A stretch of DNA of 64,000 bases, taken from contig CAWGED010000005.1 in assembly GCA_963821525.1 (NCBI GenBank), forward strand, positions 704,001-768,000, read 5' to 3'. The notes beneath the pieces are model-generated. The model saw nothing but the letters and a program-made list of their open reading frames with translations. It did no database searches and was not told the DNA's origin. Positions 634 through 966 of this stretch are shown here, in pieces; position 1 is the first letter of the stretch, and each line of letters opens with the position of its first letter. The stretch comes from an uncultured Gemmatimonadales bacterium. Its GTDB lineage: Bacteria > Gemmatimonadota > Gemmatimonadetes > Gemmatimonadales > GWC2-71-9. Both the position numbers and the translations under genes were made by a program.

Positions 634-670
634 AAACGAAAAGGCCCGGTTCACTCGGTGAACCGGGCCT
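634..670 (-). terminator. Intrinsic terminator (attenuator) upstream of metY
   Basis: Perfect 13-bp stem AGGCCCGGTTCAC-CGA-GTGAACCGGGCCT followed by TTTCGTTT on the minus strand, about 35 nt before the metY start. Confidence 0.85.
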
Positions 671-691
671 CGCAATGGTCGAATGTTGCTG

Positions 692-799
692 CTATGGGTA
701 CGCGACTACCCCGATCCGACGCATGCCGAGAACACGGCCCACCCTGAGGGGTGGACACATGCACATGATTCGACAACACATCGGGGAACGCGCGCTCAT
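692..799 (-). CDS. Met/Cys-rich leader peptide (35 aa) MSARSPMCCRIMCMCPPLRVGRVLGMRRIGVVAYP
   Basis: Manual translation. Codons 7-15 contain 3 Met and 4 Cys. GGAGGGG lies upstream. The ORF ends 21 nt before the terminator stem. Confidence 0.75.
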   Translation of the reverse strand: MSARSPMCCRIMCMCPPLRVGRVLGMRRIGVVAYP

Positions 800-937
800 T
801 TGCCGGTACGACCCCTCCGAAATGAAAATCCCTGCCGATCTGAGCGCAGGGAATGACTACCCGGCGCTTTAGCTCTTTGGTTCGGGGACGATCCCCCGGC
901 GGGAGCAAGTTGCCATAAATCCGTCCGCCGTGAAATC

Positions 938-966
938 AACCTATGATTCTTCGGGAATCCTGTCAA
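938..966 (-). promoter_or_regulatory. Sigma70-type promoter for the metY leader
   Basis: TTGACA (966-961), 17 nt spacer, TAGGTT (943-938) on the minus strand. Confidence 0.6.

Follow-up and report, generated by a model that had tools for sequence, protein, structure and literature searches.

The window, a 64,000-nucleotide stretch of an uncultured Gemmatimonadales genome (G000), carries on the minus strand of its first kilobase the 5' part of a metY gene of the O-acetylhomoserine sulfhydrylase family, together with its leader (Table 1). The metY product scores 662 bits against TIGR01326, whose cut-off is 495. Every leader element is oriented on the minus strand, and the letters match the promoter, upstream open reading frame (uORF), antiterminator and terminator described in an earlier sequence-only reading of this DNA. 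Because an ATG at 610 is missing from four same-genus genomes, the ATG at 598 is probably the true start of metY. Divergently, on the plus strand, lie yajQ (1050-1553; NF003819 above cut-off) and a SpoIID/LytB-domain gene (1534-2793), and yajQ adjoins the metY leader in many relatives.

The promoter hexamers, 17 nt apart, are present as described, and we infer a transcription start near 931. A promoter scanner called no promoter at the metY leader, since the -10 hexamer fits the consensus at only three of six positions. In 36 of 40 related leaders, all matches to a strict pattern of the aptamer described below, a TTGAYR-16..18-TAnnnT promoter ends no more than 12 nt from aptamer helix P1.

Past the window, the operon runs on through aspartokinase-like, beta-carbonic-anhydrase-like (PF00484) and metX-like genes. 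The carbonic-anhydrase-like gene (L001:9700-10209, minus strand, contig C5 of G000) lies within the metY-metX operon at 7 of 19 loci examined (L001, L251, L253, L255, L256, L267 and L268). Enzymes of the beta-carbonic-anhydrase fold can turn COS or CS2 into sulfide by hydrolysis, and sulfide made in this way would feed MetY. The aspartokinase-like gene has about 250 amino acids in G000 (L001:8536-11270, minus strand) versus about 340 in G001, G016 and G011. Also in G000, metX and the carbonic-anhydrase-like gene share one reading frame, and in G001 and G003 they are separate; both features of L001:8536-11270 are probably assembly indels. Against these apparent indels elsewhere in G000, the uORF reading frame is identical in G002 and G001, and a contig from an RNA library (X2, record 12) aligns to 618-849 with no differences and no gaps, which confirms the uORF sequence. 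Among the 24 RNA runs listed (best share among the RNA rows, 0.24), contigs of four were compared with the leader. Contigs X1, X3 and X5, from two studies, span the leader and end at 675-678, immediately short of terminator 2, and X2 continues through terminator 2 to 618. Since contigs cannot show ends or levels, we took nothing about termination from them.

Table 1. Positions of metY leader features in the window
Feature	Position	Strand	Description	Basis
-35 hexamer	966-961	minus	TTGACA	sequence
-10 hexamer	943-938	minus	TAGGTT, 17 nt from -35; 3/6 consensus, kept as TAnnnT	sequence
SAM-II-type aptamer, variant form	930-863	minus		alignment, pair counts, covariance model
Aptamer P1	930-925 with 902-897	minus		alignment A1
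Aptamer GAUUU	921-917	minus	G921, A920, U919-U917	alignment A1
Aptamer UUGC	908-905	minus		alignment A1
Aptamer GCUAAA	873-868	minus		alignment A1
Aptamer P2a	914-912 with 865-863	minus		alignment A1
Inserted hairpin	896-884	minus	GGGGA-UCG-UCCCC, between P1 and 3' pseudoknot strand	covariation
Predicted first antiterminator	868-843	minus	868-860 (including P2a 3' strand) with 851-843 (5' arm of terminator 1)	folding
Terminator 1	852-820	minus	7-pair stem, 852-846 with 835-829; tail UUUUCAUUU, 828-820	folding, alignment
Shine-Dalgarno-like sequence of uORF	818-814	minus	GGAGG; long spacing, 12-14 nt	sequence
Leader-peptide uORF	799-692	minus	35 codons, MSARSPMCCRIMCMCPPLRVGRVLGMRRIGVVAYP	ORF translation, homologous uORFs
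Control codons	781-755	minus	M-C-C-R-I-M-C-M-C	7/9 codons Met/Cys
Protector (1:2) hairpin core	756-737	minus	756-749 with 744-737, extendable over 783-716	folding
Antiterminator strand	743-728	minus	core 743-735 pairing with 665-657	9-pair duplex, covariation
Terminator 2	671-634	minus	stem 671-641, U tail to 634, tail UUUUCGUUU	14 pairs counting outer G-U
metY, 5' part	1..598	minus	O-acetylhomoserine sulfhydrylase family	

A SAM-II-type aptamer and a first terminator ahead of the uORF

The sequence-only reading implied that the uORF directly follows the promoter and that an attenuator acts here instead of a SAM riboswitch. Neither implication held. A second structured element (930-820) with its own terminator intervenes, and it consists of a SAM-II-type aptamer and terminator placed upstream of the attenuator in series. 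Within 930-863, the motifs GAUUU, UUGC, AACCAA and GCUAAA follow the order of the RF00521 consensus. An Rfam scan of window positions 1-3000 at E values up to 10 gave no SAM, T-box or S-box match and four weak unrelated ones, and the variant loci tested in relatives gave no SAM-II score at gathering level. An nhmmer profile made from 12 canonical SAM-II copies matched the window's element at its 3' end only (E = 0.74), yet the same profile does find two canonical SAM-II copies elsewhere in G000. The canonical copies of G000, at C5:813343 (minus) and C19:989292 (plus), have terminator-like hairpins and stand before metB-like and metH-like genes.

A search pattern drawn from the aptamer matched 109 stretches in GTDB genomes, and 79 of the 80 titled ones belong to Gemmatimonadota. 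One match under a Chitinophaga title (L205) has no P1 5' strand and no match to the covariance model R1 described below, and we took it to be chance. We aligned 64 representatives of the 107 distinct variant sequences (alignment A1). P1 and both pseudoknot helices are paired in 95 to 100% of cells. Changes on both sides of a pair occur at only one of six P1 pairs and one of seven P2 pairs; the other five P1 pairs and most P2 pairs lack covariation because they are invariant. In the inserted hairpin, all four tested pairs have changes on both sides, and 92.5% of cells are paired across the 64 sequences. The UUU, the P1 5' strand and the P2a GGC do not vary in any of the 64 rows although they lie outside the search pattern; the 3' half of the aptamer is fixed by that pattern for many rows. 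This comparison among relatives establishes the structure of the first element.

The ligand pocket of SAM-II includes U10 and U44 in addition to base triples. The triples are G8-C23-G42, U11-U21-A45 and U12-U20-A46, as given in the accessible text of PMC3764141. In A1, the counterparts of the triples, U10 and U44 are invariant or at least 90% conserved, the 3' members being partly fixed by the search pattern, and the C23-G42 counterpart changes to U-A in two rows. We built a covariance model, R1, from variant sequences alone. It finds all 22 canonical SAM-II-type loci given to it (E no higher than 0.093), and none of 15 aptamer-less leaders scored below E 0.25.

Terminator 1 has a predicted energy of -12.6 kcal/mol. 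A terminator scanner did not call it, and a GC hairpin with a U-rich tail is present throughout A1. The first antiterminator folds at -13.7 kcal/mol, and such a helix is found in 62 of 64 rows; its mean energy of -12.2 kcal/mol is modestly better than that of shuffled sequences (-9.3 +/- 2.9).

Is this element a SAM-II riboswitch? SAM-II has been defined as a compact aptamer of less than 70 nt with a single stem and an unpaired 3' loop (PMC1273637, accessible text). Like RF00521, the variant has P1 and a pseudoknot P2, the pocket bases, a promoter a few nucleotides before P1, a terminator 3' of P2 and methionine-pathway genes downstream (PMC1273637, PMC3764141 and PMC9373788, in the portions available). 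An OFF-switch layout with a terminator was likewise predicted for SAM-II in the accessible parts of PMC1273637 and PMC9373788. Unlike SAM-II, the variant has a covarying hairpin after P1, 13 to 30 nt from P1 to the A-rich stretch, a core of 49 to 66 nt versus 38 to 40, and a P1 of GGCGG/CCGCC; it goes unscored by Rfam and is followed by a uORF attenuator. Because the Rfam gathering score is not reached and the single-stem compact form is departed from, we class the aptamer as a SAM-II variant. The 930-863 element very probably binds SAM.

We came across another inserted-hairpin, SAM-II-like form near position 1500 of L277-L280, L282, L283, L285 and L287-L289, in families f4, f5, f6 and f9 and mostly before metH-like genes. 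There, GGUCUAAA or GCCUAAA replaces GAGCUAAA, which alters a pocket pair.

The leader peptide and its proposed attenuator

Downstream of terminator 1 lies the 35-codon uORF that had been noticed with its M-C-C-R-I-M-C-M-C cluster. Nine-codon stretches with at least seven Met or Cys codons are rare: a six-frame scan of the 4.3-Mb genome (8.67 million codon positions) found only two, of which the uORF is one. The peptide has no match in Pfam or NCBIfam. Conservation was examined in 123 metY leaders of the phylum, gathered by protein homology and hence independently of the uORF; the set holds all metY matches except six, and L108 lacks upstream DNA. A cluster of at least five Met or Cys codons in ten is present in 58 of the 123, spanning five families of the class, compared with 0 of 123 antisense strands and 8 of 2,460 dinucleotide shuffles. 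Among the closer metY clades, which again cover five families, 58 of 70 leaders have the cluster at this threshold and 64 of 70 at four or more. It is absent at five or more from genera g45 and g95 (13 leaders), family f10 (11) and distant paralogues (29). These groups (70/13/11/29) were defined after inspection of the data; the pooled 58 of 123 is independent of them. The genomes are related by kinship, so all such counts overstate independence.

An in-frame start codon is found in 66 of 67 uORF leaders and lies upstream of the cluster in 60, but an upstream start with a Shine-Dalgarno-like word is found in only 34. Cluster and stop are about 24 to 33 codons apart in most leaders, and outside the cluster the peptide varies freely. 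Genus g18 (L008, L037, L040 and L047) and L018 have no aptamer. In L008 the uORF ATG lies about 7 nt past the -10 hexamer, so this leader peptide looks leaderless.

The uORF is followed by terminator 2, which had been described as a 13-bp hairpin and has 14 pairs if the outer G-U is counted. It folds at -26.9 kcal/mol. A terminator scan found this site only (one, against a shuffle mean of 1.4), a count that alone is no evidence because shuffles yield equal numbers. In the aligned leaders, terminator 2 covaries, with 84% of cells paired and 49 two-sided changes. The uORF stop lies 15 to 45 nt from terminator 2 in 36 of 37 leaders.

The antiterminator proposed between the uORF and the terminator arm was borne out by comparison. 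The duplex begins 11 nt past the last Cys codon and can be extended to -21.3 kcal/mol. We aligned 38 of the 67 uORF leaders (at most three per genus; L003, L004 and L084 left out) with MAFFT, fitted to no structure (alignment A2). The diagonal along which uORF and terminator arm pair best proved to be the 743-735/665-657 antiterminator, with 77% of cells paired and 30 two-sided changes versus 15.7 in shuffles, above all slid registers. Compensating changes include an arm CUCUCC with a uORF GGAGAG, and an arm UUCACC or CCACU with a uORF GGUGG. Across genera, the core falls in all three codon positions (15/5/3), so what is conserved is the RNA and not the peptide. In 18 of 23 genera the cognate duplex is stronger than the average one with foreign arms, but in only 11 of the 23 does it surpass 95% of shuffles.

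A protector hairpin completes the set, at -14.6 kcal/mol locally and -34.9 extended. A protector helix covering the antiterminator core is found in 37 of 38 leaders, compared with 219 of 380 when the upstream part is shuffled. The last Met or Cys codon lies a median of 10 nt from the core, and 8 to 15 nt from it in only 23 of 38 leaders.

Ribosome stalling was examined in an occlusion model with a 12-nt ribosome footprint and the transcript ending at the loop. For the window's leader, the antiterminator probability is 0.58 to 1.0 with A-site codons 7 to 15, 0 with codons 18 to 27 and 0.35 without a ribosome; antitermination is also predicted at codons 32 to 35. Over 39 leaders (L005, L016, L062 and L084 being set aside for frameshifts or miscalled parts) the contrast is poor, at 0.60 for Met, 0.64 for Cys and 0.47 for other codons, and 16 of the 39 are antiterminated without a ribosome. 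The proposal of a ribosome-mediated attenuator gains from the conservation, the covariation, the protector and, in the window's leader, the modelled stall at codons 7 to 15; the poor contrast over 39 leaders speaks against it. The comparison does establish the anatomy: a short uORF with clustered codons for pathway amino acids, an intrinsic terminator between uORF and gene, a conserved antiterminator exclusive with it, and a protector helix, as in classical attenuators. On this anatomy the uORF would, in all likelihood, work as an attenuator.

Sulfur codons, separable modules and a two-step model

Which amino acids would the uORF read? We counted codons in a 38-nt span placed by the antiterminator, in 23 genus representatives and in 1,000 dinucleotide shuffles. 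Met codons number 62 (null, 25.0 +/- 3.6) and Cys codons 70 (null, 52.5), counts that 0 of 1,000 shuffles reached. Met codons that are not first in the cluster number 45 against a null of 17.7, and with Cys alone used to pick the frame Met is still in excess (38 versus 12.8). Other NUG codons (GUG/CUG/UUG) are depleted (6 versus 23.2), as are UGG and UGA. Because internal Met is enriched and the other NUG codons are depleted, we consider the Met codons selected and not mere starts or UG-richness. Both Cys codons are used (UGU, 31; UGC, 39). The Met:Cys ratio spans 1:5 (L007, L009 and L014) to 5:1 (L090), with one to five Cys per cluster; L086 and L090 have five Met with two and one Cys, and L080 and L082 three Met with one Cys.

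The dual sensing first proposed is supported as far as codon choice goes, but Cys is the better placed in most leaders: in 33 of 38 it is a Cys codon that lies closest to the antiterminator. Moreover, Lys replaces Met in many g13 leaders (CKC for CMC), and internal Met is absent from 3 of 38 leaders (L017, L043 and L099). Methionine shortage also lowers initiator fMet-tRNA, so uORF initiation could stop and terminator 2 stay on. The literature we searched on methionine shortage and uORF initiation held nothing relevant. That Met is sensed as well as Cys is the weakest step of our model, and we consider it probable from the codon statistics.

The two modules are separable. The 67 uORF leaders divide into 44 with the variant aptamer, 9 with a canonical one and 14 with none. 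In L019, L081, L086 and L090, a canonical SAM-II above the Rfam gathering score occupies the same slot before the same uORF. The aptamer occurs without the uORF before metY in L046 and L069 and in the 13 g45/g95 leaders; among the matches listed, it does so at no fewer than eight loci before metX-like genes and no fewer than two before aspartokinase-like genes. Stand-alone variant copies precede metY, metX-like, aspartokinase-like and metH-like genes, and among the matches listed nearly all genes downstream of the variant belong to the methionine pathway; these labels were assigned by inspection, except for metY, metX and the aspartokinase of G000. By inspection as well, L151 and L212 carry the variant aptamer and terminator (about 880-1030) before a dapD-like gene of the lysine pathway. 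An aspartokinase-like gene directly follows the complete tandem at L182 and L207, without metY; the tandem there comprises the variant aptamer, a uORF poorer in Met and Cys codons, and the second terminator.

We lean towards a model with two terminators in series: a variant SAM-II riboswitch likely sets the first, and stalling of ribosomes at Met or Cys codons likely sets the second. With SAM bound, the pseudoknot would close and occupy 865-863, and terminator 1 would form. Without SAM, 868-860 would pair with 851-843 and transcription would continue past terminator 1. A ribosome starting at 799 and traversing the whole uORF would disrupt the 743-735/665-657 helix; once the ribosome has passed, the protector helix would re-form and terminator 2 would fire. 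A ribosome stalled at codons 7 to 15 would instead mask the protector 5' strand and free 743-735 for the antiterminator, so that metY would be read. Transcription of the operon would then require low SAM together with a shortage of Met- or Cys-tRNA. In this scheme we infer the SAM ligand, the switching at terminator 1 and the role of the ribosome at terminator 2.

Might the same tandem instead sense Cys-tRNA only, with SAM alone reporting methionine and the AUGs serving as spare starts or aiding the protector helix? The position of Cys nearest the antiterminator, the CKC of g13, the three leaders without internal Met and the effect of methionine starvation on initiation would all fit, as would the published leader peptides we found, which are Cys ones only. 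Against it, internal Met is in excess (45 versus 17.7) and other NUG codons are scarce (6 versus 23), a start codon lies upstream of the cluster in 60 of 67 leaders, and L086, L090, L080 and L082 hold more Met than Cys. We regard Cys-only sensing as unlikely. A different doubt concerns the ligand: the attenuator could be real and the upstream element bind something else, such as SAH, or merely stabilise the 5' end. The missing Rfam match, the weak sequence-profile match, the scant covariation of P1 and P2 and the L151 and L212 copies before a dapD-like gene speak for this. Set against it are the invariant or near-invariant counterparts of the SAM pocket, the recovery of 22 of 22 canonical loci by R1, the relatives with canonical SAM-II in the same slot and, among the matches listed, downstream genes that are nearly all of the methionine pathway; we think it quite improbable.

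The remaining alternatives deny the uORF its role as a ribosome sensor. The UG-rich cluster might be an RNA-structure or protein-binding element in an untranslated ORF, with terminator 2 toggled otherwise or constitutive; the cluster does form part of the protector helix, and the Shine-Dalgarno spacing of the uORF is long. Against this, in-frame AUG and UGY exceed dinucleotide shuffles, GUG/CUG/UUG, UGG and UGA are depleted, an in-frame start is present in 66 of 67 leaders, the stop is fixed in position relative to terminator 2, and the g18 ATG 7 nt past the -10 hexamer (L008) resembles that of a leaderless ORF. This makes an untranslated element very unlikely. We give still less credence to a functional small Cys-rich peptide, metal-binding or modified: Cys clusters and a fairly constant length (about 24 to 33 codons from cluster to stop in most) are what one might expect of it, but the sequence beyond the cluster is unconserved, the conserved core occurs in all three reading frames, Cys number varies from one to five and there is no family match. 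The preferred reading remains the series of two terminators, and its fullest form is one on which our judgement is evenly balanced: a three-input sulfur gate that joins an inserted-hairpin SAM-II subclass missed by Rfam (about 108 GTDB places) to an attenuator reading elongator Met-tRNA and Cys-tRNA, with each module gained and lost independently of the other within Gemmatimonadota and a Met:Cys ratio that lineages have retuned, from 1:5 to 5:1.

Comparison with known systems

The classical trp-type mechanism of leader-peptide attenuation is summarised in the accessible text of PMC9971707. The metY leader resembles trpL, hisL, leuL and thrL in its uORF of pathway codons, protector, antiterminator, intrinsic terminator and geometry. 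It is unlike them in that its control codons are Met and Cys, in the riboswitch with its own terminator ahead, and in the antiterminator strand, which is part of the uORF and some 70 nt away from the terminator. The reading of two amino acids by one leader is known for the thrL and ilv leaders.

Cysteine leader peptides have precedents. They have been predicted before cys operons (PMC1262725, accessible text), and uORFC-8-2, before cysS in Rhodobacterales, was predicted as a Cys-codon uORF with an intrinsic terminator (PMC8632094); it differs from the metY uORF in having two Cys codons and no Met and in preceding a synthetase gene, and the available portion of that paper mentions no riboswitch. 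In mycobacterial polycysteine leaderless sORFs, stalling at Cys codons controls sulfur genes, as was shown there by experiment (10.1101/834739, PMC1262725). These sORFs act on translation by freeing a downstream ribosome-binding site, and they have no conserved terminator hairpin according to the accessible part of 10.1101/834739; neither it nor the available text of PMC1262725 mentions Met codons or a riboswitch. The sequence-only reading knew of no characterised example of a dual sulfur-amino-acid sensor. For cysteine this needs amending, since Cys leader peptides exist (PMC8632094 and 10.1101/834739, accessible text); for methionine it agrees with our search of the non-subscription literature, supplements aside, which found no Met leader-peptide attenuator, although other attenuation surveys (e.g. 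PMID 15135544) could hold Met/Cys ones. The same search of non-subscription main texts found no tandem of SAM-II and uORF, though the supplements of PMC8632094 may list more uORFs, and no SAM-II with an inserted hairpin. Already known separately are Cys leader peptides and SAM-II riboswitches with terminators.

Tandem riboswitches forming logic gates, such as SAM-II/SAM-V and ppGpp/T-box, are described in the accessible text of PMC9481103. The metY leader shares with them independent switches and two-input logic, as well as a SAM-II placed first with a terminator; unlike theirs, its second unit is a uORF read by ribosomes. The strings 'uORF', 'leader peptide' and 'attenuat' do not appear in that survey as accessible, and 'leader peptide' is absent from the available text of PMC12452182 and PMC2258182. 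We also considered precedents for joining the two kinds of control. The Salmonella mgtA leader combines a Mg2+ switch with the mgtL leader peptide, so that a riboswitch plus a leader peptide would not be a new category.

What, then, does the metY leader mean? The inserted-hairpin aptamer shows that Rfam undercounts SAM-II, and that a variable hairpin can be accommodated in the SAM-II pseudoknot; such a hairpin might serve for attaching labels or for engineering. The natural relatives with a single module, riboswitch only or uORF only, are ready controls. Tandem RNA logic, catalogued for aptamers, T-boxes and ribozymes (PMC9481103, accessible text), would be widened by a leader that pairs a riboswitch with an attenuator read by ribosomes. 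A leader peptide that reads internal Met poses a testable question, because a lack of methionine should keep ribosomes from initiating on the sensor uORF itself as well. Bacterial methionine control has been attributed to SAM riboswitches, T-boxes and repressors. If the three-input gate is true, methionine would be an amino acid that bacteria sense by means of the ribosome.
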